Source: an uncultured bacterium (GTDB lineage Bacteria; Bacteroidota; Bacteroidia; Chitinophagales; Chitinophagaceae). From it: 64,000 nucleotides of DNA. The notes under the pieces were generated by a model. It was not told where the DNA came from and ran no database searches. It saw nothing but the letters and a program-made list of their open reading frames with translations. Position numbers and translations under genes: made by a program. Location: assembly GCA_903920455.1 (NCBI GenBank), contig CAIXLY010000079.1, positions 25,937 through 89,936 on the forward strand, given 5' to 3'. This document shows positions 21,587 through 33,478 of this stretch, piece by piece. Numbering within the stretch: position 1 is the stretch's first letter; each line of letters begins with the position of its first letter.

Positions 21587-22504
21587 ATGCCTCTTAATCA
21601 AGAAGACGAATTTAGTGCTCAGTTTTCAGGCTCACTGCCTGTGCAGGAAACCACTTCAAACAGCTGGTTTAAACGGGGGAAGAGGGGTATAAGTACAACC
21701 ACCTCAGAAAAGAAGGAAGCTCCAGATGGTTTGTGGACCAAATGTCCTGACTGCAAGTATACTTGCACCACCGTGGAGCTAAAGGAAAATCTCTCCGTTT
21801 GTCCCCAGTGCAACCATCATCACAGAATTGGCAGCGAGGAATACTTTGATATTCTTTTTGATGATCATCAGCATACTGAACTCTTTGCAGAGGTTAGGTC
21901 AGTCGATTTTCTTGGCTTTAATGACCTCAAGCCCTATAAAAAAAGATTGGTTGAGGCGTATGACAAGACCGGATTACATGACTCAATTACTTCATCCGTT
22001 GGAAAAGTAGGTGGTCGTGACCTCTTGGTGTGTTGTATGGACTTTAATTTCATTGGAGGATCTCTGGGTAGTGTGATGGGTGAAAAGATTGCCAGATCTG
22101 CGGATTACTGCCTTGAGCATAGGATACCGCTCATGATAATCAGTAAGAGTGGTGGAGCGAGAATGATGGAAAGTGCGTTCTCGCTGATGCAACTTCCCAA
22201 AACACTAGGAAAGATAAGCAGGCTTGCAGTAGCAGGCATCCCATATATCTCCCTTTGTACCGATCCCACCTATGGTGGAACAACCGCATCATTTGCTATG
22301 GTTGGTGACATCAATATAGGTGAACCCAGGGCCATGATTGGTTTTGCAGGTCCACGGGTTATCAGGGAAACAATCAAAAGAGACCTTCCGGAAGGGTTTC
22401 AGACCTCCGAATTTGTCTTGGAACATGGATTTCTCGATATGATTGTAGGTCGCAAAGAGCTGAAAGACCGAATTTCAGTCCTTCTTGGCCTATTTGCAGG
22501 CTAA
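21587..22504 (+). CDS. accD: Acetyl-CoA carboxylase carboxyltransferase beta subunit
   Basis: C4 zinc finger CPDC..CPQC, GGSLGSVMGEK, SGGARMME, GFAGPRVI. Confidence 0.97.
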   Translation: MPLNQEDEFSAQFSGSLPVQETTSNSWFKRGKRGISTTTSEKKEAPDGLWTKCPDCKYTCTTVELKENLSVCPQCNHHHRIGSEEYFDILFDDHQHTELFAEVRSVDFLGFNDLKPYKKRLVEAYDKTGLHDSITSSVGKVGGRDLLVCCMDFNFIGGSLGSVMGEKIARSADYCLEHRIPLMIISKSGGARMMESAFSLMQLPKTLGKISRLAVAGIPYISLCTDPTYGGTTASFAMVGDINIGEPRAMIGFAGPRVIRETIKRDLPEGFQTSEFVLEHGFLDMIVGRKELKDRISVLLGLFAG

Positions 22505-22534
22505 TTTTTCAAAAAAGGGATCTTCCCTTGTATT

Positions 22535-22969
22535 ATGGAAATCAGGAATAAAAATGCAACATTCGAGTATTTCATCGAGGATAAATTCGATGCTGGAATG
22601 ATATTGACTGGTACTGAAGTCAAGGCCTTGCGCGATGGCCGAGTTAGTTTTAATGATAGCTATTGTCTCATTGATCACAATGAACTATACATTAAGGGAC
22701 TTCATATCTCTCCCTATGAGTTTGGCAGTTATGCCAATCATCCTCCTTTAAGAGACCGAAAGCTTCTTCTCAAGAAAAAAGAGTTGAATAGGATCATACA
22801 GAAACTCAAGGAGAAGGGACTCACCATAGTGCCCTTGAAAATCTATTTTAATGAACGGGGTTTTGCAAAGATCCAAATTGGTCTCGGAAAAGGGAAAAAG
22901 CTGTACGACAAGCGCGATACGATTAAGCAGCGTGAATCAGAGCGAGAAATCAAAAGATACCTCAAGTAG
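22535..22969 (+). CDS. smpB: SsrA-binding protein
   Basis: LTGTEVKALR, RKLLLKKKE, GKGKKLYDKR. Confidence 0.97.
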   Translation: MEIRNKNATFEYFIEDKFDAGMILTGTEVKALRDGRVSFNDSYCLIDHNELYIKGLHISPYEFGSYANHPPLRDRKLLLKKKELNRIIQKLKEKGLTIVPLKIYFNERGFAKIQIGLGKGKKLYDKRDTIKQRESEREIKRYLK

Positions 22970-23042
22970 CCGTTTTGCCAATGATTGTCCAACTTTTGCA
23001 TGTTTTTTGGAATTCTTGCTATTTTTTCTGAAATTTGACTAA

Positions 23043-23096
23043 ATGAAATTAAATCAAACAAACAACGGTTGGCATATCATACCTTTTCAGGGGTAG
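23043..23096 (+). CDS. Attenuator leader peptide MKLNQTNNGWHIIPFQG (17 aa) with adjacent Trp-His codons
   Basis: ATG 23043, TGG 23070-72, CAT 23073-75, TAG 23094-96, directly upstream of the terminator and trpE. Confidence 0.75.
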   Translation: MKLNQTNNGWHIIPFQG

Positions 23097-23155
23097 TGCC
23101 TATGTTATTTGTTCACATAAGTAAAGCCCCGATATATCATCGGGGCTTTTATTTT
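23071..23155 (+). promoter_or_regulatory. Transcription attenuator (1:2 protector, 2:3 antiterminator, 3:4 terminator)
   Basis: 1:2 = GGCAT(23071-75)/GTGCC(23096-100) plus TACC/GGTA; 2:3 = GGGGT(23090-94)/GCCCC(23126-30) enclosing TATGT/ACATA; 3:4 = the terminator. Confidence 0.75.
23123..23155 (+). terminator. Attenuator terminator
   Basis: AAAGCCCCGAT-ATATC-ATCGGGGCTTT, 11-bp stem, followed by TATTTT, 14 nt before the trpE ATG. Confidence 0.9.
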
Positions 23156-23169
23156 AAATTAATTCCGAA

Positions 23170-24645
23170 ATGGAGAATCAGAATCAGGTTAGTGTTAAGA
23201 CTTCAGTCCGAAAAATGGCTGCAGATCTGTTTACACCCGTTGGCATCTACCTAAGGTTAAGGGATCGGTTCAGGGATACCATCTTGCTTGAGAGTACAGA
23301 TCATCATACGGCAGAAAATAGTTTTTCCTTTATTGCTATCAATGCTATTGGTGGTATTGAAATCTCATCCGATAACAAGGTTGAGTATAAGTATCCAGGG
23401 ATGCTGCCCCAACAAATTAGTTTGGGTGAAGATGCTTCCGTTCCCGATTTGGTATGGTCTTATATGCAGGGATACAATGTGGAGGCCGGAGAAAAGCAAC
23501 TTAAGTTTGCCCAGGGTTTATTTGGCTATACGGCCTACGACGCAATACCTTTCTTTGAAACCATTGCATTCAATAAGAAGCCCTATCGCATCAAGCAAAA
23601 TAACGATGTAAGTGGGGCCCAGATAGATCAAGCAATTCCATTGATGAGATATCGTTTCTATCAGTATGTTATTGCTATAGATCATTTTAGGGATGAGTTG
23701 TATCTGCTGGAAAATCATGTACCCAGCTTGCCAGGAAATAAGCAACTGGTTGAAGAGGTGATCTTGAGTAGGGATCTTCCTCAATATCCATTTGAGACGA
23801 TTGGAGACGAGACCTCTAACCTAACTAATCAAGAGTACCTTGAAATGGTTGAGAAAGGGATTGCTCACTGTTTCAGAGGCGATGTTTTTCAGATTGTGTT
23901 GAGCCGCAGATTTGAGCAGTCATTCAAAGGGGATGAGTTTAACGTATACCGAGCACTGCGCATGATCAATCCATCTCCTTATCTTTTCTTCTTCGATTAT
24001 GGTGATTACAAATTGATGGGGTCATCACCAGAGAGTCAGTTGATTATCGCCAACGATAAAGCCATCGTTCATCCAATTGCTGGTACATTCAAGCGAACCG
24101 GTGATGATACAGTGGATCGAAAAGAGGCAGAGCGATTATTGGAAGATCCAAAAGAAAATGCAGAGCATGTGATGTTGGTGGATTTGGCAAGGAATGATCT
24201 TAGTCGGGTTTGTGAAAAAGTTGAAGTTGCTCAATATCGTCAAGTTAAATATTATTCGCATGTTATTCATCTTGTCAGTGAGGTGGTGGCCAATGTGACG
24301 AAAGGTTCCAATCCAGTGATGCTGATGGCTAAAACATTTCCTGCTGGTACCTTGAGTGGGGCTCCTAAGTTTCGTGCAATGCAACTCATCGATCAATATG
24401 AGAAAACATCCAGGTCTTTTTATGGTGGAGCCATTGGCTTTATGGGATTTGATGGTTCGTCCAATCAAGCTATCTTGATTAGGAGTTTCCTTAGTAAGAA
24501 CAATACACTTTTTTATCAGGCCGGTGCAGGTGTTGTGGCTTCTAGTGTGCCTGAAAGTGAATTGCAAGAAGTGAACAATAAACTCGGGGCCTTAAAAATG
24601 GCAGTGATTTATGCTAGCGAAATAAATGTTGACAGGTCAAACTAA
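23170..24645 (+). CDS. trpE: Anthranilate synthase component I
   Basis: LLES, GDVFQIVLS, NPSPY, PIAGT, KENAEHVMLVDLARND, FPAGTLSGAPK, QAGAGVV. Confidence 0.96.
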   Translation: MENQNQVSVKTSVRKMAADLFTPVGIYLRLRDRFRDTILLESTDHHTAENSFSFIAINAIGGIEISSDNKVEYKYPGMLPQQISLGEDASVPDLVWSYMQGYNVEAGEKQLKFAQGLFGYTAYDAIPFFETIAFNKKPYRIKQNNDVSGAQIDQAIPLMRYRFYQYVIAIDHFRDELYLLENHVPSLPGNKQLVEEVILSRDLPQYPFETIGDETSNLTNQEYLEMVEKGIAHCFRGDVFQIVLSRRFEQSFKGDEFNVYRALRMINPSPYLFFFDYGDYKLMGSSPESQLIIANDKAIVHPIAGTFKRTGDDTVDRKEAERLLEDPKENAEHVMLVDLARNDLSRVCEKVEVAQYRQVKYYSHVIHLVSEVVANVTKGSNPVMLMAKTFPAGTLSGAPKFRAMQLIDQYEKTSRSFYGGAIGFMGFDGSSNQAILIRSFLSKNNTLFYQAGAGVVASSVPESELQEVNNKLGALKMAVIYASEINVDRSN

Positions 24646-24656
24646 AATAATATACG

Positions 24657-25265
24657 ATGCCTTTGAAAAAATTACTGGTACTTGACAATTACGATTCCTT
24701 CACGTACAACTTAGTTCATCTTGCTCTAGAAATACTAGGGGATGGGGTTGATGTATTTAGAAATGATGAGATATCTATCGAGGATGCTGGGAAGTATGAA
24801 AAAATTCTTCTTTCACCTGGTCCGGGTATCCCTGAAGAGGCGGGAATTTTGTTGCCACTGATCCGAACGTATGCATCAAATCATTCTATGTTTGGAGTAT
24901 GTTTAGGTCATCAGGCAATTGGAGAGGCTTTTGGCGGACAATTGGCAAATCTTTCATCTGTTTATCATGGAGTCTCAACTCCAATAACATTGGAAAATAA
25001 CATTGCAGAATCGTCATTTCACAATGATTGGTTTTTGAATTTGAAGAGCCCTCTTGAGGTTGGTCGATATCACAGCTGGGTCGTAGAAGATGAAAGATTT
25101 CCTACTGAGCTTGAAGTTACTTCTAGGGATGGCAAAGGCATGATCATGTCGCTTCGACACAGAAAATTTGATGTTCAGGGTGTTCAATTTCATCCTGAGA
25201 GCGTGCTCACGCGAGATGGAAAGACTATGTTAAACAACTGGTTAAACAATAGGGCTATCCTATAA
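24657..25265 (+). CDS. trpG: Anthranilate synthase component II (glutamine amidotransferase)
   Basis: DNYDSFTYN, SPGPG, GVCLGHQ, RYHS, QFHPES. Confidence 0.96.
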   Translation: MPLKKLLVLDNYDSFTYNLVHLALEILGDGVDVFRNDEISIEDAGKYEKILLSPGPGIPEEAGILLPLIRTYASNHSMFGVCLGHQAIGEAFGGQLANLSSVYHGVSTPITLENNIAESSFHNDWFLNLKSPLEVGRYHSWVVEDERFPTELEVTSRDGKGMIMSLRHRKFDVQGVQFHPESVLTRDGKTMLNNWLNNRAIL

Positions 25266-25276
25266 ATTATAGCACC

Positions 25277-26272
25277 ATGAAACAAATTCTAAATTATTTA
25301 TTTGAACATAAAGTGCTTTCGCGTGAGTACGCAAAGCAGATCATGCTTGATTTGGGAATGGGGAAATTCAATGATCACGAATTAAGTGCTTTGATGACTG
25401 TCTTTCTTATGCGCAGCATAGCTCTTTCTGAACTGCAAGGATTCCGCGACGCATTGTTAGAGCTTGCAGTACCTATTAATTTTGAGGAGCGTAAGGTAAT
25501 GGATATCGTAGGAACTGGTGGAGATGGAAAAAATACCTTTAATATCTCAACACTTTCATGTTTCATAGTTGCTGGGGCAGGACAGCCTGTTGCCAAGCAT
25601 GGGAGTTATGGTTCAAGTTCTGTGAGTGGAGCTTCAAATTTGATGGATTCTTTAGGCTACAAGTTCAAGAATGATGAATCTGTTCTTCGAAATGAGATCG
25701 ACCAAACAAATATGTGCTTTTTGCATGCACCTATCTTTCATCCTGCACTCAAAGCCGTCGCCCCCATCAGAAAGAACCTTGGGATACGAACTTTTTTCAA
25801 TATGCTTGGTCCGATTGTAAATCCGTCTAGCCCAACATTTCAGCTAGTTGGCGTGTATAATCTTGAGATTGCAAGGATGTATAATTATTTCTTTCAAGGC
25901 GAAGCCAGGAAGTATGCAATCATTCACTCTTTGGATGGCTACGATGAGATCTCTCTGACTGCAGATGTCAAATCCTTTTCTCCAGCCGGGGAAAAAATAT
26001 ATTCTCCAGAACAACTTGCGGGACTTAGAGTTGATGGTGCTGATATTTATGGTGGGGAGTCTGTACAGGAAGCATCTTCAATATTTATGAAAATTCTTCA
26101 AGGGGAAGGTACACCCTCCCAAAATGCTGTTGTCATTTCAAATGCGGCAATGGCACTTTCTCTTAATGATGATTTTGGTGATTATCAGGCGGCAAGAGAT
26201 GCCGCAAATGAAAGTCTTGAATCCGGTAAGGCATATATGACGCTTAAACAACTATTGGCTCTCCAAGCTTAA
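25277..26272 (+). CDS. trpD: Anthranilate phosphoribosyltransferase
   Basis: DIVGTGGDGKNTFNIST, KHG, FFNMLGP, DGYDE. Confidence 0.97.
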   Translation: MKQILNYLFEHKVLSREYAKQIMLDLGMGKFNDHELSALMTVFLMRSIALSELQGFRDALLELAVPINFEERKVMDIVGTGGDGKNTFNISTLSCFIVAGAGQPVAKHGSYGSSSVSGASNLMDSLGYKFKNDESVLRNEIDQTNMCFLHAPIFHPALKAVAPIRKNLGIRTFFNMLGPIVNPSSPTFQLVGVYNLEIARMYNYFFQGEARKYAIIHSLDGYDEISLTADVKSFSPAGEKIYSPEQLAGLRVDGADIYGGESVQEASSIFMKILQGEGTPSQNAVVISNAAMALSLNDDFGDYQAARDAANESLESGKAYMTLKQLLALQA

Positions 26273-26277
26273 TTGAG

Positions 26278-27057
26278 ATGAATATATTAGACACGATAAT
26301 TGAAAAAAAAAGAAACGAGGTTTCTGAAAGAAAGCTTAGGGTTGCTTTATCTGATCTTCAGCAGAGACCTTATTATTCAAGAAATACTTATTCGCTAGTA
26401 AATACATTGAAGGGAGCAGATGCCTCAGGCATTATAGCAGAATTCAAGAGAAAGTCGCCTTCAAAAGGGATCATTAATGATCAAGCCGACGTAGTTCAAG
26501 TTGCGACTGCGTATCAGGATGCAGGGGCATCTGCAGTTTCTGTATTGACAGATGAATCTTTCTTTGGTGGATCTGATGCTGATTTACTTGCCATCAGGCC
26601 ATTCCTTCAAATTCCAATTCTGAGAAAAGAGTTTATCGTTGACCAATACCAGATTCACGAGGCAAAATCAATTGGCGCCGATTTAATTCTCCTGATTGCA
26701 GCCTGTCTTAGTCCAACTGAAGTAAAAGAATTGTCCACTTTAGCCCAAGCAATAGGTCTTGAGGTCTTGCTTGAACTGCATGATGAGGATGAATTAGGTC
26801 ATATCTGCGATACGGTTAATCTTGTTGGGATAAACAATCGAAGCCTCAAGACGTTTGATGTAAATATTGAAAGAAGTTTAATGATGGCAAAGCAGATTCC
26901 AGAGGATAAGATGAAGGTAGCCGAAAGTGGGATTGATGATCCAGGCCAAGTGAAGTTGTTTCGGAATGATGGCTACAATGCTTTTTTGATTGGTGAAAAC
27001 TTTATGAAAACAACTAATCCAGGATTAGCGCTAAGTCAGTTTATAGAAAATATTTAA
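26278..27057 (+). CDS. trpC: Indole-3-glycerol phosphate synthase
   Basis: IAEFKRKSPSKG, SVLTD, LRKEF, GINNR, AESGI. Confidence 0.97.
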   Translation: MNILDTIIEKKRNEVSERKLRVALSDLQQRPYYSRNTYSLVNTLKGADASGIIAEFKRKSPSKGIINDQADVVQVATAYQDAGASAVSVLTDESFFGGSDADLLAIRPFLQIPILRKEFIVDQYQIHEAKSIGADLILLIAACLSPTEVKELSTLAQAIGLEVLLELHDEDELGHICDTVNLVGINNRSLKTFDVNIERSLMMAKQIPEDKMKVAESGIDDPGQVKLFRNDGYNAFLIGENFMKTTNPGLALSQFIENI

Positions 27058-27059
27058 TC

Positions 27060-27698
27060 ATGAGAATAAAGGTATGCGGAATGACCAGTATTGTTCAGCT
27101 CAAAGAGCTGGAAGAGATGGGTGTGGATTTCGCAGGCCTCATTTTTTATTCACGTTCACCAAGATACGCCACCCGCGGAGGTCTCACGCCCGAGGTATTG
27201 AAAAAAGAAAAGCTTAGGATAAACCGAATTGGAGTTTTTGTTAATGAGACGATTGAAATGGTGCTAAAGACCGTGGATGCTTGGAAGCTCGATATGGTTC
27301 AGTTGCATGGTGATGAATCTCCAATTTTTTGTGAGAAAATCAGTAATCATGTGAACACTATCAAAGCGTTTAGGGTAAGTAGTGAGGATAATATTCCCTA
27401 CAAGGTTTCCCCTTTTTCAGAAGCTACAGATCTTTTTCTATACGACACCATGGGAAAACAGTATGGCGGAACTGGGGAGCAGTTCAGCTGGGATCTATTG
27501 GACAATGCCAAGCTCTCCAAGTCATATTTTTTAAGTGGCGGAATTGGTCCTGATGATCTCGATAAAATCAAGGACTTTTGTATAAACCAGGACAAACTAT
27601 TCTCCTTGGATCTCAACAGTAAATTCGAGACTTCTCCTGGCGTTAAGGACATGACTGTTTTAAAACGATTTGTAGAAAGCATAAAAAATAACAATTAA
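27060..27698 (+). CDS. trpF: Phosphoribosylanthranilate isomerase
   Basis: KVCG, SPR, GVFVN, QLHGDE, GGTG, LSGGI, DLNSKFE. Confidence 0.96.
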
Positions 27699-27699
27699 G

Positions 27700-28893
27700 A
27701 TGGTACAAGTTTTTTCAAAGCCAGACGAAAATGGCTATTACGGTGAATTTGGTGGAGCCTATATTCCTGAAATGCTTTACCAAAATGTAGAACATTTGAA
27801 ATCTGCTTATTTGTCCATCATCGGGGATCCAGTATTTCAAAAAGAGTTTCACGCATTGTTGAAAGATTATGTTGGAAGACCCACACCGCTTTTTCTTGCT
27901 GAACGTTTGAGTGAACGTTTTGGGTCGACGATCTATCTTAAAAGAGAAGACCTTTGTCATACTGGGGCTCATAAAATTAATAATACCATTGGACAGATTC
28001 TTCTTGCTCAACGTTTGGGCAAGACAAGAATTATCGCTGAAACAGGTGCCGGACAACATGGAGTTGCTACTGCAACAGTTTGTGCACTAAAGGGAATGGA
28101 ATGTATTGTGTATATGGGCGAAAAAGATATCCAACGCCAGGCTCCTAATGTGGCACGCATGAAAATGTTAGGCGCCAAAGTTATTCCTGCAACAAGTGGA
28201 AGCAAGACACTTAAAGATGCTACAAATGAGGCAATTCGGGATTGGATAAACAATCCTGTTGATACCCATTACATCATTGGTTCGGTTGTTGGGCCACATC
28301 CATATCCAGATATGGTTTCTATTTTTCAATCTGTCATCAGTGCTGAAATTCGGGTTCAGTTAAAAGAAAAAACTGGAAACGAATTGCCAACACGGGTTAT
28401 TGCCTGCGTTGGTGGTGGTAGCAATGCTGCAGGTGCTTTCTATCATTTCTTGGATGAACCCGCAGTTGAAATTGTTTCTGTTGAAGCAGCTGGGCATGGC
28501 GTGAACAGTGGAATGAGTGCTGCCACTACACAGCTTGGAGTTCCAGGTATCTTGCATGGCAGCAAAAGTATTGTGATGCAAACTGCAGACGGACAAGTTG
28601 TTGAGCCTCATAGCATTTCTGCTGGCCTGGATTACCCTGGAATTGGTCCCATGCATGCCAACTTATATACTAGTAAGCGTGCCAGGTTTATGAGCGCCAC
28701 CGATGAAGAAGCCTTAAGCTGGGCTTTTGAGTTATCACGTATGGAAGGAATTATTCCTGCCTTGGAGACCGCACATGCATTTGCAGTATTGGGGGAAATG
28801 GGACTGAAGAAAAATGATGTTAACGTGGTTTGTTTGAGTGGTAGAGGCGACAAAGACCTTTCCACCTATATGAATGCAATGAATGAACAATAA
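27700..28893 (+). CDS. trpB: Tryptophan synthase beta chain
   Basis: [15 protein letters not shown] (PLP lysine), [35 protein letters not shown]. Confidence 0.98.
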
Positions 28894-28905
28894 AAGTGAA
28901 AAGAA

Positions 28906-29676
28906 ATGAGCAGGTTCAAAGAATTATTTGAAAAGAAACACTCAGGCGTTTTGAATGTGTATGTCACAGCCGGGTTTCCTGAGCTTGATAGCACGCTTGT
29001 TATTATGGAGGCACTTCAACAAAGTGGTGCTGACGTGATTGAGATTGGGATGCCTTATAGCGATCCGCTAGCCGATGGTCCTGTTATTCAAGAGAGCAGT
29101 GCTGTAGCATTGGAAAATGGGATGACCATTGCTCGACTTTTTGAACAGCTCAAAGGATTTAGAGAAAAAATACATGTGCCTGTCGTGCTGATGGGGTATA
29201 TGAACCCAGTGCTTCAATATGGGTTTGAAAATTTTTGTTCAGATGCTGCGGCGGTAGGGATTGATGGGTTGATACTTCCAGACCTTCCAGCCCTTGAGTT
29301 TGAGCAGTCCTATGGGAAGGTTATAAAAAAGTACAACCTAGATTTCATCTTTCTAGTTACACCAGAGACGAGTGAGGAAAGGGTTAGAAAACTAGACGGG
29401 CTCAGTTCAGGTTTTTTATATGCTGTTTCATCTTCATCCACTACTGGTAAAGAGCAGGATTTTTCGGGAGTTACTTCATACCTAAAAAAACTCGAGTCCT
29501 ATCAACTTAAAAATCCTGTATTGGTTGGATTTGGTATTAAGGACAAAGCCACATTTGATGCTGTAAAAGCTCATGCACATGGTGCAATCATTGGGTCTGC
29601 TTTCATTAAGGCACTCTCTGAAAAAGGAACTCCATCAGCTATCACTTCCAGGTTTATCAACGGAGTACTTAACTAA
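28906..29676 (+). CDS. trpA: Tryptophan synthase alpha chain
   Basis: EIGMPYSDPLADGPVIQ, MGYMNP, PDLP, VGFGI, GSAF. Confidence 0.98.
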   Translation: MSRFKELFEKKHSGVLNVYVTAGFPELDSTLVIMEALQQSGADVIEIGMPYSDPLADGPVIQESSAVALENGMTIARLFEQLKGFREKIHVPVVLMGYMNPVLQYGFENFCSDAAAVGIDGLILPDLPALEFEQSYGKVIKKYNLDFIFLVTPETSEERVRKLDGLSSGFLYAVSSSSTTGKEQDFSGVTSYLKKLESYQLKNPVLVGFGIKDKATFDAVKAHAHGAIIGSAFIKALSEKGTPSAITSRFINGVLN

Positions 29677-29682
29677 TTATTG

Positions 29683-30279
29683 ATGAAGGTAGTTGTGATA
29701 AAATATAATGCGGGGAATGTGAGATCTGTGCAATTTGCATTGGAAAGACTTGGTATTTCGCCAACATTTTCTGATGATCCAGAAACTATTTTGTCGGCTG
29801 ATAAAATAATTTTTCCAGGAGTTGGAGAAGCGAGCTCTGCCATGACGTATCTCAAAGAAAGGGGACTAGATCAAGTTATCTTACAATCAACACAGCCCTT
29901 TCTTGGTATCTGTCTAGGCATGCAACTGATGTGTTCACATTCTGAAGAAAATAATACTGCCTGCTTGGGTGTGTTTAAGGAAGATGTCAAACGGTTTGTG
30001 CCAAATCAAGCTGCTGAGAAGGTGCCGCAAATTGGGTGGAATACCATCTATGATTTGAAGACAGACTTGTTTGATCGTGTACAAGAAAATAGCTTTTGTT
30101 ATTTTGTTCATAGCTATTATGCCAGCAAAGGAGAACATACCGTTGCTACAACTGATTATTGCGGGCCTTATAGTGCTGCATTACACGTTAATAATTTTTA
30201 CGGTGTTCAGTTTCACCCTGAGAAAAGTGCAGATACCGGAGAATTAATATTGAAGAACTTTTTAAATCTACCACTATAA
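29683..30279 (+). CDS. hisH: Imidazole glycerol phosphate synthase, glutamine amidotransferase subunit
   Basis: GNVRSV, PGVG, GICLGMQ, VPQIGWN, YFVHSY, QFHPEKS. Confidence 0.96.
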   Translation: MKVVVIKYNAGNVRSVQFALERLGISPTFSDDPETILSADKIIFPGVGEASSAMTYLKERGLDQVILQSTQPFLGICLGMQLMCSHSEENNTACLGVFKEDVKRFVPNQAAEKVPQIGWNTIYDLKTDLFDRVQENSFCYFVHSYYASKGEHTVATTDYCGPYSAALHVNNFYGVQFHPEKSADTGELILKNFLNLPL

Positions 30280-31010
30280 TGCAGATTATACCTGCTATTG
30301 ATATTATTGATGGAAAGTGTGTGAGGCTTACAGAAGGCGACTATACTCAGAAGACTGAGTATGCATACACCCCATTGGACCTGGCAAAAATGTATGAGGA
30401 TAGCAGCATTGAGCGATTACACTTGGTTGATCTTGACGGAGCAAAAGCTGGAAAAGTAACCAATTGGGCTGTTGCTGAATCTATCGTCAAGCACACCAAG
30501 TTGGTCATAGATTTTGGAGGAGGAGTGAAAACAGTTGAAGAGGTAAGAAGAATTCTTGATTTGAATATTTCCTATGTGACTGTTGGGAGTGTTGCCGCAA
30601 AGCAGCCTGAAGTCTTTAACAGCTGGGTAGATGAATTTGGTGCAGAGAAATTTATGCTTGGTGCGGATGTTAGGGGTGAGCACATCATGGTAAGTGGCTG
30701 GATGGAAAAGTCTGATTTGGAATTGATGCCCTTCTTAAAGGAAAATAGTGCTAAAGGAATTCGAAATGTATTCTGTACTGACGTCAGTAAAGATGGAAGG
30801 CTAGAAGGTCCTGCCACTGAACTGTACAGACGCATTAAGCTTCAGTTCCCAGAGCTTTTTTTAATTGCAAGCGGAGGTGTTTCTCAAATTTCTGATTTGT
30901 ATGATCTTCAGGAGGCGGGTTGTGATGGTGTAATAATTGGGAAGGCCATTTATGAGAACCGAATCTCTATGGATCAATTGAAGAGTTTTATTCAACAACA
31001 AGGAAACTGA
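30279..31010 (+). CDS. hisA: ProFAR isomerase
   Basis: [40 protein letters not shown]; TAATG overlap with hisH. Confidence 0.96.
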
Positions 31011-31014
31011 TGAT

Positions 31015-31767
31015 ATGCTAACTAAAAGAATAATTCCTTGTTTGGATATTAAAGATGGCCGAACGGTTAAAGGAACAAACTTTGTTGACCTTCGTGATGC
31101 CGGTGATCCTGTTGAGCTTGCTGCACGCTATGCTGAAGAGGGTGCTGATGAGCTTGTTTTTCTTGATATTACTGCTACCAATGAGAAGCGAAAAACTCTA
31201 GCTAGTCTGGTTGATAAAATCGCCCATCGGATTAACATCCCTTTTACTGTAGGAGGAGGAATTTCTTCTATTGAAGATGTTAGGATATTGCTTGATAGCG
31301 GAGCTGATAAAGTTTCTATCAATACCTCAGCATTTAAAGATCCGGAATTAATTAATAGGCTTTCCTCTGAATTCGGAAGCCAGTGTATCGTTTTGGCAAT
31401 CGATACGAAGCAACATGCAGATGGAGCGTGGTATGTTTATTTGAATGGCGGAAGGGTAGCAACGGAAAGAAAATGTATTGATTGGGCCATTGAAGGTGTA
31501 GCACGGGGTGCTGGAGAAATTCTACTCACCTCTATGGATCATGATGGCACTAAAGCCGGATTTGCAAAAGCCATTACTGAAGCTGTTTCTAAGTCTGTTC
31601 CTGTTCCGGTTATCGCTTCTGGTGGAGGAGGTGCGCCCGAACATTTTGCTGAGATTCTCAATGGCCCTGCTGACGCAGCCTTGGCCGCGAGTATTTTCCA
31701 TTTTAGAGAAATATCTATCCCTGACCTTAAATCATATCTCCGACTTCACTCCATTTGTGTCCGTTAA
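31015..31767 (+). CDS. hisF: Imidazole glycerol phosphate synthase, cyclase subunit
   Basis: [41 protein letters not shown]. Confidence 0.98.
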
Positions 31768-31796
31768 TGCGTTTGAATGTTTAATTTTACATCATT

Positions 31797-32396
31797 ATGG
31801 AAGCAACAATAGATTTTAAGAAATTTGCTGATGGACTTGTTCCTGCGATTACTCAAGATGAGCATACTGGTAAGGTGCTCATGTTGGGATACATGAATCA
31901 GGATGCATTTGATGCTACTATGGCTTCAGGGAAAGTGACTTTTTACAGTCGATCTAAAGAGCGGTTGTGGACTAAAGGAGAGGAGAGTGGTAACTTTTTG
32001 ATGTTGAAGTCGTATGCCTTGGATTGTGATCAGGATGCTTTATTGTTTAAAGTTTCTCCTGTTGGTCCGGTTTGTCATACTGGTGCCGACACCTGCTGGG
32101 GAGAAGTTAATGCATCTGACGATTTTTTAAGTTACTTGGAATCTATCATTGAACTTAGGAAGAACGGAGAGGATGACAGTTCATATATAAAAAGTCTTTT
32201 TGCAAAAGGGATAAATAAGATTGCACAGAAGGTTGGAGAAGAGGCTGTCGAGCTGGTCATAGAGGCAAAAGATCAGGATGATGAAAAATTTTTAGACGAA
32301 GCTGCGGATCTCCTCTTTCACTATTTGCTTTTGCTTAACAGGAAAGGGTTTACTTTAGATGATGTCAAATTGATACTCAAAAAAAGACATAAATAA
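31797..32396 (+). CDS. hisIE: Bifunctional PRAMP cyclohydrolase / PRATP pyrophosphatase
   Basis: SRSKERLWTKGEESG, DCDQD, CHTG...C, KVGEEAVE, EAADLLFH. Confidence 0.96.
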   Translation: MEATIDFKKFADGLVPAITQDEHTGKVLMLGYMNQDAFDATMASGKVTFYSRSKERLWTKGEESGNFLMLKSYALDCDQDALLFKVSPVGPVCHTGADTCWGEVNASDDFLSYLESIIELRKNGEDDSSYIKSLFAKGINKIAQKVGEEAVELVIEAKDQDDEKFLDEAADLLFHYLLLLNRKGFTLDDVKLILKKRHK

Positions 32397-33478
32397 TGAA
32401 AAGCACCATACTTTTATTACTCTTGGTTCCTTGCCTTCTGTTCTCACAATCATCTAAAAAGTACAGCATAAAGGGCGTCTTGAAAGGGATGACCGATAAA
32501 ACTGAACTTGTGCTAAAAAATGATGAGCTAAGTAAAGAGCCAATTGCTTCATGCAAATCTAAAGGAGATCAGTTTGAAATAACTGGTGATTTGAAGGAAT
32601 CAGGTCTGTATTATATCTCTACGAAATCTGGAAATGACAAGTTGCTTATTTTTCTTGACGCCTCTAAAATAAGTATTGAGGGTGATTTTTCTACCTTGCA
32701 AAGTTCACGCGTGACAGGGTCTTCCACCCACAATGATTTTATTGCGTTCAATACTATCTTTAATCCATTGTTCACAAAACTATCTGCCTTAGCACAACAG
32801 CTAAACCAAGGGGCAAAGGATGATGACCAACAGATCCGGAAAGCATATACCAATTCAGTTGGAGAAGTTAATCTTGAAATAGACAATTTCATATCTGCGC
32901 ATTCTTCTTCTCCTGTATCTCCATTTATTTTATTGGTTACGATGCAGCTGAATGATGACCCAAAGCTTCTTGAGAGCAGGCTTGATAAGATTTCAGCGTC
33001 CGCAAAGCAAAACTATTTTGGCCGTGCTGCTATTAAGGTTGTTGAGGACGCAAGATTTGGATCTATAGGATCACCAGCCCTAGAATTTACTCAGCAAGAT
33101 CCCAATGGGAAAGATATTTCTCTTTCAAGCTTCAATGGCAAGTATGTGCTTATTGACTTTTGGGCAAGCTGGTGTGGGCCTTGTCGTCAGGAAAATCCAA
33201 ATTTGGTGAACGCATACAATAAGTTTAAAGAAAAAAATTTCACAGTTTTGGGTGTTTCATTGGACAGGTCAAAAGAAGCATGGTTGAAAGCAGTTAAAGA
33301 TGACCAGTTGACATGGACACAAGTAAGTGATTTGAAGTGGTGGAGTAATGAAGTGGCTGTTAAGTATAAGATACAGAGTATCCCCCAAAACTATTTGCTT
33401 GACCCCGAGGGAAAGATCATTGCTAAAAACTTGCGTGGTCCGGCATTACATGCTACCTTATCTAAGCTGCTCCAGTAG
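32396..33478 (+). CDS. TlpA/AhpC-TSA family exported disulfide reductase (DUF4369-type N-terminus)
   Basis: Signal peptide, DFWASWCGPC thioredoxin motif, IPQNYL; TAATG overlap with hisIE. Confidence 0.9.
   Translation: MKSTILLLLLVPCLLFSQSSKKYSIKGVLKGMTDKTELVLKNDELSKEPIASCKSKGDQFEITGDLKESGLYYISTKSGNDKLLIFLDASKISIEGDFSTLQSSRVTGSSTHNDFIAFNTIFNPLFTKLSALAQQLNQGAKDDDQQIRKAYTNSVGEVNLEIDNFISAHSSSPVSPFILLVTMQLNDDPKLLESRLDKISASAKQNYFGRAAIKVVEDARFGSIGSPALEFTQQDPNGKDISLSSFNGKYVLIDFWASWCGPCRQENPNLVNAYNKFKEKNFTVLGVSLDRSKEAWLKAVKDDQLTWTQVSDLKWWSNEVAVKYKIQSIPQNYLLDPEGKIIAKNLRGPALHATLSKLLQ

Follow-up and report, generated by a model that had tools for sequence, protein, structure and literature searches.

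An attenuator-like leader with adjacent Trp and His codons upstream of a hybrid trp-his operon in Chitinophagaceae

In an uncultured member of the Chitinophagaceae (Bacteroidota), tryptophan and histidine biosynthesis genes stand in a single run behind one short leader open reading frame (ORF), in which a Trp codon is directly followed by a His codon. Does this leader control the operon by attenuation, and, if so, does it answer to both amino acids or to tryptophan alone? We addressed these questions within a stretch of 64,000 nucleotides (here, the window; contig CAIXLY010000079.1 of GenBank assembly GCA_903920455.1) and across the related loci of the family. To our knowledge, attenuation in Bacteroidota has hardly been studied.

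Results

A short leader ORF precedes a trp-his operon

The leader, its putative promoter, and the genes behind it are as follows.

23030 to 23037, forward strand: candidate Bacteroidota-type -7 promoter box, GAAATTTG (sequence reading)
23043 to 23096, forward strand: leader ORF, MKLNQTNNGWHIIPFQG and stop (read from the sequence; homologous to the family consensus)
23170 to 29676, forward strand: trpE, trpG, trpD, trpC, trpF, trpB, and trpA (NCBIfam matches, ORF coordinates)
29680 to 32396, forward strand: hisH, hisA, hisF, and hisIE (NCBIfam matches, ORFs)
32396 to 33478, forward strand: gene for a TlpA/ResA-like thiol-disulfide oxidoreductase, overlapping the hisIE stop

The leader ORF reads from ATG at 23043 through 17 sense codons to TAG at 23094-23096, 73 nt before trpE (start at 23170). 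A sequence-only reading of this DNA had described a 17-codon ORF with a single TGG followed by CAT and an operon downstream with both trp and his genes; the ORF is present as described, with the Trp codon at 23070-23072 and the His codon immediately after it at 23073-23075, and NCBIfam matches confirm both sets of genes. hisH begins 3 nt past trpA, and the terminator scan found no terminator-like site between the two. The thiol-disulfide oxidoreductase gene is found family-wide 3' of hisIE or, where the his genes are absent, of trpA.

The -7 promoter box of Bacteroidota has the consensus TAnnTTTG. The candidate box lies 5 nt before the leader ATG, and relatives have similar boxes 5 to 12 nt ahead of theirs (alignment A1 and sequences). 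This position implies a nearly leaderless leader mRNA, and we infer from it that transcription would start just before the ATG.

The hisG gene of the window organism is on another contig, and since it has a leader (MFLTIHNHHHKFPPIR and stop) and a terminator of its own, His attenuation would appear, from the sequence only, to be in use in this organism. In 13 relatives, hisNB is found directly upstream of the trp operon on the same strand, so that the trp operon is nested there in the his operon.

Three alternative helices link the leader to a terminator

Three structures can form between the leader ORF and trpE.

23057 to 23113, forward strand: hairpin 1:2, the anti-antiterminator (minimum-energy fold)
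23090 to 23130, forward strand: antiterminator 2:3 (ribosome-constrained folds)
23123 to 23159, forward strand: intrinsic terminator 3:4, stem AAAGCCCCGAT / ATCGGGGCTTT, loop ATATC, U-rich tail (terminator scan, fold)

The terminator is the top-ranked terminator-like site in the 15.5 kb scanned, with a G+C-rich stem of 11 bp (23123-23133 and 23139-23149) followed by TATTTT. In the minimum-energy fold, hairpin 1:2 pairs GGCAU (23071-23075, within the Trp and His codons) with GUGCC (23096-23100) and UACCUU (23080-23085) with GGGGUA (23090-23095), and its outer, A/U-rich pairs join 23057-23067 to 23103-23113. The antiterminator is an alternative to this hairpin: its core pairs GGGGU (23090-23094) with GCCCC (23126-23130), extended by UGC (23097-23099) with GUA (23121-23123) and by UAUGU (23101-23105) with ACAUA (23115-23119), for a predicted energy of -14.6 kcal/mol in constrained folds. 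This minimum-energy fold has a z-score of -3.66, and 2 of 200 shuffles folded equally well; that the element is more than chance rests on its conservation in the family, not on this single sequence.

For masked folds, a 28-nt ribosome footprint was centered on UGG or CAU, and the RNA ended before the 3' arm of the terminator. The antiterminator held its full predicted energy with the A site placed anywhere from four codons before Trp to two after it, His included, weakened to -7.6 kcal/mol at +3, and was absent by +5; a ribosome at the stop codon likewise abolished it. Relatives gave similar antiterminator energies (-13.3 to -22.9 kcal/mol). A crude criterion for antiterminator formation, applied over all leaders, scores 45% even without a ribosome, and the informative quantity is the relative drop past +2.

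The element has a short ORF with a Trp codon, a terminator before the first gene, and mutually exclusive 1:2, 2:3, and 3:4 pairings, as expected of a trpL-type attenuator; the further criterion, that a stalled ribosome mask segment 1 and a ribosome at the stop codon mask segment 2, is met in silico only. All of this had been proposed by the sequence-only reading, and its structural claims hold up well: UGG-CAU does lie in arm 1 of hairpin 1:2 in the minimum-energy fold, the folds include both of the pairings foreseen for GGGGU (within 1:2 or with GCCCC of the terminator), and the trpL architecture gains support from family-wide covariation and masked folds, which also agree, computationally, that a stall at UGG or CAU frees GGGGU and that a ribosome at UAG covers it.

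Proposed mechanism

The reading that we prefer, albeit with considerable reserve, is that of a ribosome-mediated attenuator of trpEGDCFBA-hisHAF(IE), which most likely responds when either charged tRNA-Trp or charged tRNA-His runs short. Transcription would start a few bases before the leader ATG. A ribosome that reaches the stop of the 17-codon leader would cover GGGGU, allowing the 11-bp terminator to form and transcription to stop before trpE. A ribosome stalled with UGG or CAU in the A site would instead cover arm 1 of hairpin 1:2 and leave GGGGU free to pair with GCCCC once the 5' arm of the terminator is made, and polymerase would read through. Without translation, hairpin 1:2 would hold GGGGU, and the terminator would again form. 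With the His codon, a shortage of histidine alone would suffice for expression of the latter half of the histidine pathway, whose genes sit behind a Trp-controlled terminator; the earlier half (the hisG operon) has a separate His-rich leader at another place in the genome. The codon arrangement expected of a multivalent leader is present, in that UGG and CAU are adjacent, both lie in the interval from which the antiterminator can form, and they match the trp and his genes downstream. The response to Trp and His starvation is inferred, without expression, Term-seq, or ribosome-profiling data, and coupling of translation to transcription at the leader is likewise an inference.

The leader belongs to a family found across Chitinophagaceae

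Nearly all Chitinophagaceae sampled possess a leader-peptide attenuator of this family, with the consensus M..N..WWWHTNS.RGL and stop. A homologous ORF with Trp codons, followed by a terminator, precedes trpE in about 100 of the 107 family genomes of the first sample and in 73 of another 80 named genomes, and the leader ORF is conserved in more than 170 related loci.

All three pairings are supported by covariation. Counted jointly, hairpin 1:2 (columns 37-56 with 61-83 of alignment A1) and the terminator have 90% of cells paired (38 to 52% in slid controls), with 16 pairs in which both sides have changed; the 10 pairs of the terminator alone are 96% paired, 7 of them with changes on both sides. 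The antiterminator helix is 75% paired (25 to 61% in slid controls). Two leaders carry three-way compensatory changes across segments 2, 3, and 4 (L050 and L081), and in L081, CGAGGC / GCCTCG / CGAGGC have changed together in all three strands.

In the clade to which the window belongs, the reduction to one Trp codon is derived, the family norm being WWWH. This clade (five sequences in all) has a conserved minimal leader, NNGWH, whose core AACAACGGTTGGCAT is identical to that of the window in L142, L143, L329, and L333. The TrpE proteins of L142 and L143 are only about 80% identical to that of the window, and their leader and all three helices are kept. A 15-base pattern scan of metagenome contigs gave 120 matches, of which 2 were true leaders and the rest mostly chance; neither of the two contigs reached the his region.

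With two of the three family Trp codons lost and a core antiterminator pairing of 5 bp (a shortened GGGG:CCCC, versus 8 bp in the family consensus), the window element might be taken for a decayed, nonfunctional relic, or else for the terminator of smpB beside a fortuitous small ORF, given that smpB, on the same strand, ends 150 nt upstream and that no other terminator intervenes. We consider either version very improbable and reject both. The NNGWH leader, hairpin 1:2, the antiterminator, and the terminator are kept in the one-Trp relatives with compensatory differences in their stems (L142, L143, and two metagenome contigs); the full antiterminator of the window falls inside the energy range of typical family members; and the same leader stands before trpE in relatives whatever the gene farther upstream, including quite different ones.

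The His codon tracks the his genes

If the leader is functional, it remains to be asked whether its His codon is there to sense histidine. The set used to examine co-evolution comprised 143 leaders, 91 from operons with hisH and 52 from operons without. A His codon directly after the Trp run (position +1) is present in 88 of the 91 operons with his genes versus 28 of the 52 without, and a test of dependent evolution returned a likelihood ratio (LRT) of 34.3 (p = 3.5e-8), such that the check set by the sequence-only reading, conservation of the His codon where his genes follow trpA, came out in its favor. The rate at which His +1 is lost is 0.076 with his genes and 2.05 without (ca. 27-fold). 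Leaving out outgroups or taxa of uncertain operon state did not overturn the result, and it was replicated in 42 newly added taxa alone (25/25 versus 10/17; p = 0.003). Under parsimony, His was lost eight times where the his genes are absent (branch length, 12.9) and twice where they are present (branch length, 21.3), and the replacements (Q, L, Y, N, P, and T) are each a separate change.

An additional His codon just ahead of the Trp run (position -1) shows the same bias (19/91 versus 1/52; LRT 12.0, p = 0.0025), whereas Gln at -1 showed no effect of the his genes. Every one of the 91 his-containing operons has a His codon somewhere from -1 to +2 relative to the Trp run, including the three that lack His +1, whose leaders read WWWQH (L089) and HWWWQ (L119 and L120).

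These data must be weighed against a possible, if less probable, explanation: that the attenuator senses Trp only, with CAU kept by its pairing with AUG/GUG just past the stop or for some other sequence reason, and the link to the his genes arising secondarily from shared ancestry and from general leader decay in rearranged lineages. The His codon is in fact base-paired family-wide in hairpin 1:2 (C45-G73, A46-U72, and U47-A71), its third position covarying with the stop codon (UA, 50; UG, 15; CG, 4), so part of its conservation is structural. It is also not strictly tied to the his genes: the 28 operons that keep WWWH without them include two from Flavobacteriales (L220 and L221), and G042, the sister of the window in the first tree, retains His +1 although its trpE, trpA, and hisH are all apart. 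Moreover, Thr at +2 and Asn at +3, examined as control codons, are lost 2.6- and 3.1-fold faster without his genes (p = 0.03 each), meaning that part of the effect is general relaxation. Enterobacterial his leaders have seven His codons, next to which a single one is a weak sensor, and this too counts against His sensing.

Several observations are nevertheless hard to reconcile with a response to Trp alone. For His, the ratio of the two loss rates is roughly tenfold that found for Thr and Asn, which lie on the same helix strand; with his genes, His is lost 8 to 11 times slower than Thr or Asn, and without them at about the same rate. His -1 falls outside the columns tested for hairpin 1:2, and its bias is the same; the three exceptions at +1 carry their His at -1 or +2 instead. 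In the first data set (98 taxa; LRT 24.4), none of 200 parametric simulations under independence reached the observed statistic (maximum, 13.5). A sign test on phylogenetically independent pairs had low power (n = 9; about 3 pairs follow the his genes, 0 the opposite, and 6 are tied; median p = 0.25) and was replaced by the rate-based likelihood tests. Correlated-evolution tests of this kind may be overconfident, the tree came from a quick search, and some operon states in draft genomes were inferred across contig breaks.

The earlier suggestion of an OR gate for Trp and His starvation stands on the co-evolution and masked folds, and no experiment supports its His-sensing part. For the family as a whole, we incline, by a narrow measure, to a bivalent attenuator throughout Chitinophagaceae, its codons changing with the genes that the operon contains. 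As one joint reading, insertion of trp genes into a his operon would have made a His codon necessary for hisHAF(IE) to escape a Trp-controlled terminator; the codon would be purged whenever the his genes leave the operon; and the clade of the window would have been reduced to a one-Trp, one-His sensor that weights the two signals more evenly than WWWH.

Discussion

In silico, three things are established: the ORF, a set of three alternative helices backed by covariation, and co-evolution between the His codon and the presence of his genes in the operon. Should the bivalent reading be confirmed, the leader would offer a clear example from nature of a regulatory peptide recoded to match a changed operon content, with one attenuator integrating two unrelated amino acid pathways and a single codon serving as a selectable sensor; it would also define, for Bacteroidota, an attenuator family so far uncatalogued. 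Its evolutionary history is unusually informative: his genes have left the operon many times independently, and each loss was followed by decay of the His codon. The case also bears on how operons can nest or fuse without disrupting the control of pathways.

Among known systems, the E. coli trpL leader (RF00513) shares the short Trp-codon ORF, the 1:2, 2:3, and 3:4 helices, the terminator before trpE, and an outcome decided by the position of the stalled ribosome. The present element differs in having no sequence or covariance-model match to it, in its occurrence in Bacteroidota, in its leader mRNA, inferred to be nearly leaderless, in that the antiterminator strand (segment 2) is formed by the last ORF codons themselves, and in its codons and genes (three Trp plus His in the family, one Trp plus His in the window, and hisHAF(IE) added to the operon).

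Leaders that read several amino acids are textbook cases in enterobacteria: thrL has Thr and Ile codons, and ilvL and ivbL have Ile, Val, and Leu codons. As in these, a single leader here combines codons of different amino acids, and shortage of any would relieve termination. The amino acids of thrL and ilvL come from one branched pathway, whereas Trp and His are unrelated and joined by operon fusion, and the second amino acid here is represented by one codon, or by two in 21% of leaders. The earlier remark that no description of such a device was known thus needs qualifying: the Trp/His variant is new, and the principle is not. On our best reading, which is experimentally untested, it is a new variant of multivalent attenuation and not a new kind.

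A his gene cotranscribed with a trp operon also occurs in the aromatic supraoperon of Bacillus subtilis (aroFBH-trpEDCFBA-hisC-tyrA-aroE), where hisC owes its place to the additional role of its enzyme in making Tyr and Phe. That supraoperon is controlled by the TRAP protein and not, as proposed for the operon described here, through a leader peptide.

In an Rfam search of window positions 22000-24000 at E values up to 10, Trp_leader (RF00513) and His_leader (RF00514) were not listed; the only matches were terminator-driven chance matches and Phe_leader at 19 bits. The Bacteroid-trp motif (RF01692) is located upstream of tryptophan genes. Its model likewise had no match in positions 22000-24000 at E values up to 10, its best score on the whole genome was 23.4 bits, elsewhere (gathering cutoff, 49 bits), and a gathering-level search of nine relatives gave no match. 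This motif appears in Table 1 of Weinberg et al. 2010 (PMC2864571) as a cis-regulatory element in Bacteroidetes; as its model misses the element in the window and in nine relatives, the leaders described here appear to be a separate, uncatalogued family.

No relevant report of a Trp/His leader came out of a literature search covering Bacteroidota and Chitinophagaceae. Operons of this type have themselves been reported: in Thermoflavifilum thermophilum and Filimonas lacunae, the his operon is interrupted by trp genes, and a single transcription unit was suggested for the hybrid operon (Del Duca et al. 2021, PMC8305728), in a main text in which the word "leader" has no match and attenuation is named only for the enterobacterial his operon. 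These two species belong to the same family as the window organism and have the same hybrid gene order, but in the window organism hisG is on another contig and smpB stands before the leader.

A very probable leader-peptide attenuator ahead of the trp-his operon

The element directly upstream of trpE is very probably a real attenuator, a judgment made without transcription or translation data; His sensing is its best-supported reading, which we favor with moderate confidence in the absence of starvation-response data. The ORF, codons, and terminator described in the sequence-only reading match the window sequence exactly:

Leader ORF: ATG at 23043, codons MKLNQTNNGWHIIPFQG, stop TAG at 23094-23096 (read from sequence)
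Trp codon TGG: 23070-23072, in the leader ORF
His codon CAT: 23073-23075, in the leader ORF, directly after TGG
Terminator: 23123-23149, AAAGCCCCGAT-ATATC-ATCGGGGCTTT, then TATTTT
trpE start: 23170

A terminator scan ranked this hairpin first among terminator-like sites within 15.5 kb and detected no such site between the leader and smpB, which lies upstream on the same strand. An unconstrained fold of the leader region (-35.6 kcal/mol, z = -3.66) pairs GGCAU, from the adjoining Trp codon UGG and His codon CAU, with GUGCC directly past the stop, reproducing the proposed 1:2 hairpin with UGG-CAU in arm 1; the same fold pairs UACCUU with GGGGUA and also contains the terminator. The trp and his genes proposed to lie below the leader were found in the order trpE, G, D, C, F, B, A, hisH, hisA, hisF, hisIE, followed by a TlpA/ResA-like gene, with a 3-nt gap between trpA and hisH.

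In most family members the operon ends with this last gene (a thiol-disulfide oxidoreductase; 32396-33478), which stands after hisIE or, where the his genes are gone, straight after trpA, and has no evident connection to the Trp or His pathway. trpF is single copy and tightly spaced in the window; many relatives (loci L034, L045, L047, L049, L061, L063, L069, L078, L087, and others) have two adjoining trpF-like matches, with an additional 0.5 to 2 kb of DNA ahead of trpB.

Ribosome stalling was modeled by masking a 28-nt footprint and cutting the RNA before the terminator 3' arm. When UGG or CAU occupies the A site, the one-Trp leader of the window forms an antiterminator of -14.6 kcal/mol (core 2:3 pairing GGGGU:GCCCC, with UGC:GUA and UAUGU:ACAUA), inside the typical relatives' range of -13.3 to -22.9, and with the ribosome at the stop it forms none; the claim that a stall at either codon frees GGGGU, which a ribosome at the stop would cover, is thus borne out in silico. 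The stall-sensitive stretch extends two codons beyond the Trp codon and therefore includes the His codon. The mode of working is like that of E. coli trpL and the multivalent thr and ilv leaders, which are leader-peptide attenuators.

A conserved leader family with alternative helices

TrpE was searched in a one-per-genus set of 150 genomes from the same family, and the region from -700 to +9800 of trpE was retrieved for 107. Ahead of trpE, nearly all of these loci have a small ORF that follows the consensus M-K-x-x-I-x-N-x-x-W-W-W-H-T-N-S-x-R-G-L-stop and, about 30 nt past it, a terminator, AGCCCCGA...TCGGGGCUUUUU. The same leader is present in a second sample of 80 named loci, which identifies the family as Chitinophagaceae (Lacibacter, Flavihumibacter, Terrimonas, Hydrotalea, Sediminibacterium, Ferruginibacter, Niabella, Puia, Chitinophaga, and others). 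The window leader belongs to no Rfam leader family tested: none matches the region at E values up to 10, and Bacteroid-trp (RF01692) reaches at most 23 bits in the window's own genome, at sites other than the leader, with no match in nine relatives. We found no description of a Trp/His leader in the literature.

In an alignment of 82 leaders, RNAalifold recovered the terminator, which shows covariation, along with a 5' hairpin joining the Trp codons (GGUGGUG) to CAUUGCC past the stop. Written out in full, the 1:2 hairpin sets the codons for Trp, His, Thr, Asn, and Ser against a stretch comprising the G of the Arg codon, the codons for Gly and Leu, the stop, and roughly 12 nt past it. Across this hairpin and the terminator combined, 90% of cells are paired, versus 38 to 52% with partners slid, and 16 pairs show both-sided changes. 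The ORF's final codons, (U)CGGGGCU(U), copy the terminator 3' arm and pair with the 5' arm of the terminator (75% of cells paired versus 25 to 61% slid); in leaders L081 and L050, G to A in segment 2 is matched by C to U in segment 3, with segment 4 altered as well in L081. The family has the classical 1:2/2:3/3:4 design, with segment 2 within the end of the ORF. An A-U-A-U-U-C-A motif directly ahead of the terminator 5' arm, conserved in most leaders (alignment columns 101-116; about 23113-23122 in the window), is unaccounted for by the three helices.

Two Flavobacteriales MAGs, one of them Cloacibacterium, lack his genes and have trp leaders of the form N-WWWH-L-(Y/F)-S, with a terminator quite unlike the family's. 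At 59% identity, their TrpE is as near to the window's as that of distant Chitinophagaceae is, suggesting that the WWWH motif may be ancient or horizontally transferred.

Decay was considered as the origin of the one-Trp leader and rejected. The nearest relatives (L142 and L143, TrpE 80% and 79% identical to the window's) have the leaders MKRIYTNNGWHFISDKG and MNRNYTNNGWHFISDKG, likewise behind smpB, with the three helices kept and compensatory differences in them, and two metagenome contigs carry MKSMNTNNGWHTIS and another copy of the L143-type leader. Judged from these leader sequences, one Trp and one His codon are a conserved trait of the window's clade.

The His codon tracks the his genes

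The contribution of this analysis is a phylogenetic test, based on sequence comparison alone, of the His codon against his-gene content. Operons were classed as having hisH after trpA, or as either split or having tlpA or other genes in that place; states unresolved in drafts were settled by a TrpA+HisH query, and some span contig breaks. Among 98 taxa (concatenated TrpE-G-D-C-F tree from a quick search), His directly follows the Trp run in 60/63 operons with his genes versus 18/35 without. A two-trait Markov model favors operon-dependent rates (LRT 24.4, 2 df, p = 5e-6), with His-codon loss at 2.27 without his genes versus 0.11 with them; the maximum LRT in 200 simulations under independence was 13.5. 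Thr (+2) and Asn (+3), on the same helix strand, gave LRTs of 2.3 and 4.5, neither significant. Dependence persists with outgroups dropped (p = 1.7e-4), inferred states dropped (p = 4e-5), or leader L089 scored as His (p = 9e-7). By parsimony, 8 losses of the His codon fall on his-less branches (length 12.9), 2 on branches that switch state, and another 2 on his-containing branches (length 21.3).

Adding the named loci (143 taxa, tree again from a quick search) gives His at +1 in 88/91 operons with his genes versus 28/52 without (LRT 34.3, p = 3.5e-8), as expected from the proposal that it is kept specifically where his genes follow trpA. Loss rates are 2.05 and 0.076 without and with his genes, a 27-fold difference, versus 2.6-fold for Thr and 3.1-fold for Asn (p = 0.03 each); restricted to the 42 added taxa, the counts are 25/25 versus 10/17 (p = 0.003). 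The three his-containing exceptions have His one codon off (WWWQH, HWWWQ, HWWWQ), so that a His codon falls between -1 and +2 relative to the Trp run in 91/91 his-containing operons versus 28/52 others. An extra His codon at -1, outside the 1:2 hairpin columns tested, occurs in 19/91 versus 1/52 (LRT 12.0, p = 0.0025); for Gln at -1, the 143 taxa show no effect of his genes.

Structure accounts for part of the His conservation, since the codon is base-paired in hairpin 1:2, its third base covarying with the stop codon (UA 50, UG 15, CG 4). His is also retained in half of the his-less operons, including the two Flavobacteriales and G042, the window's sister genome in the first tree, where trpE, trpA, and hisH are all separate. 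A single His codon is a weak sensor.

Nested operons and a second leader at hisG

Among relatives with long upstream flanks, 13 have hisNB directly upstream of the trp leader, in the slot occupied by smpB in the window, an arrangement that nests the trp operon within the his operon:

Bifunctional hisNB: 40-580 nt upstream of the trp leader, same strand (loci including L157, L163, L171, L178, L181, L183, L185, L202, L209, L211, L213, L214)

Such nesting is reported for two species, without analysis of regulation (Del Duca et al. 2021, PMC8305728). In the nested relatives and the window, hisHAF(IE) lies behind a terminator predicted to be shut when Trp is abundant, and a His codon inside the stall-sensitive stretch would reopen it under His shortage. 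hisG of the window's genome lies on a separate contig behind its own leader and terminator, a second attenuator, judged from sequence alone, directly upstream of the gene (locus L141, 1363-1470, contig C106 of G000). Its ORF, MFLTIHNHHHKFPPIR-stop, has 4 His in 5 codons and is followed by GGGCTTGCCATTGGTAAGCCTTTTTT and then hisG; with both leaders in place, both halves of the His pathway would be predicted to respond to His.

In two relatives (L072, G105:C12; L088, G034:C2), trpA and hisH still adjoin but lie 45 kb and 283 kb from trpEGDCF(B).
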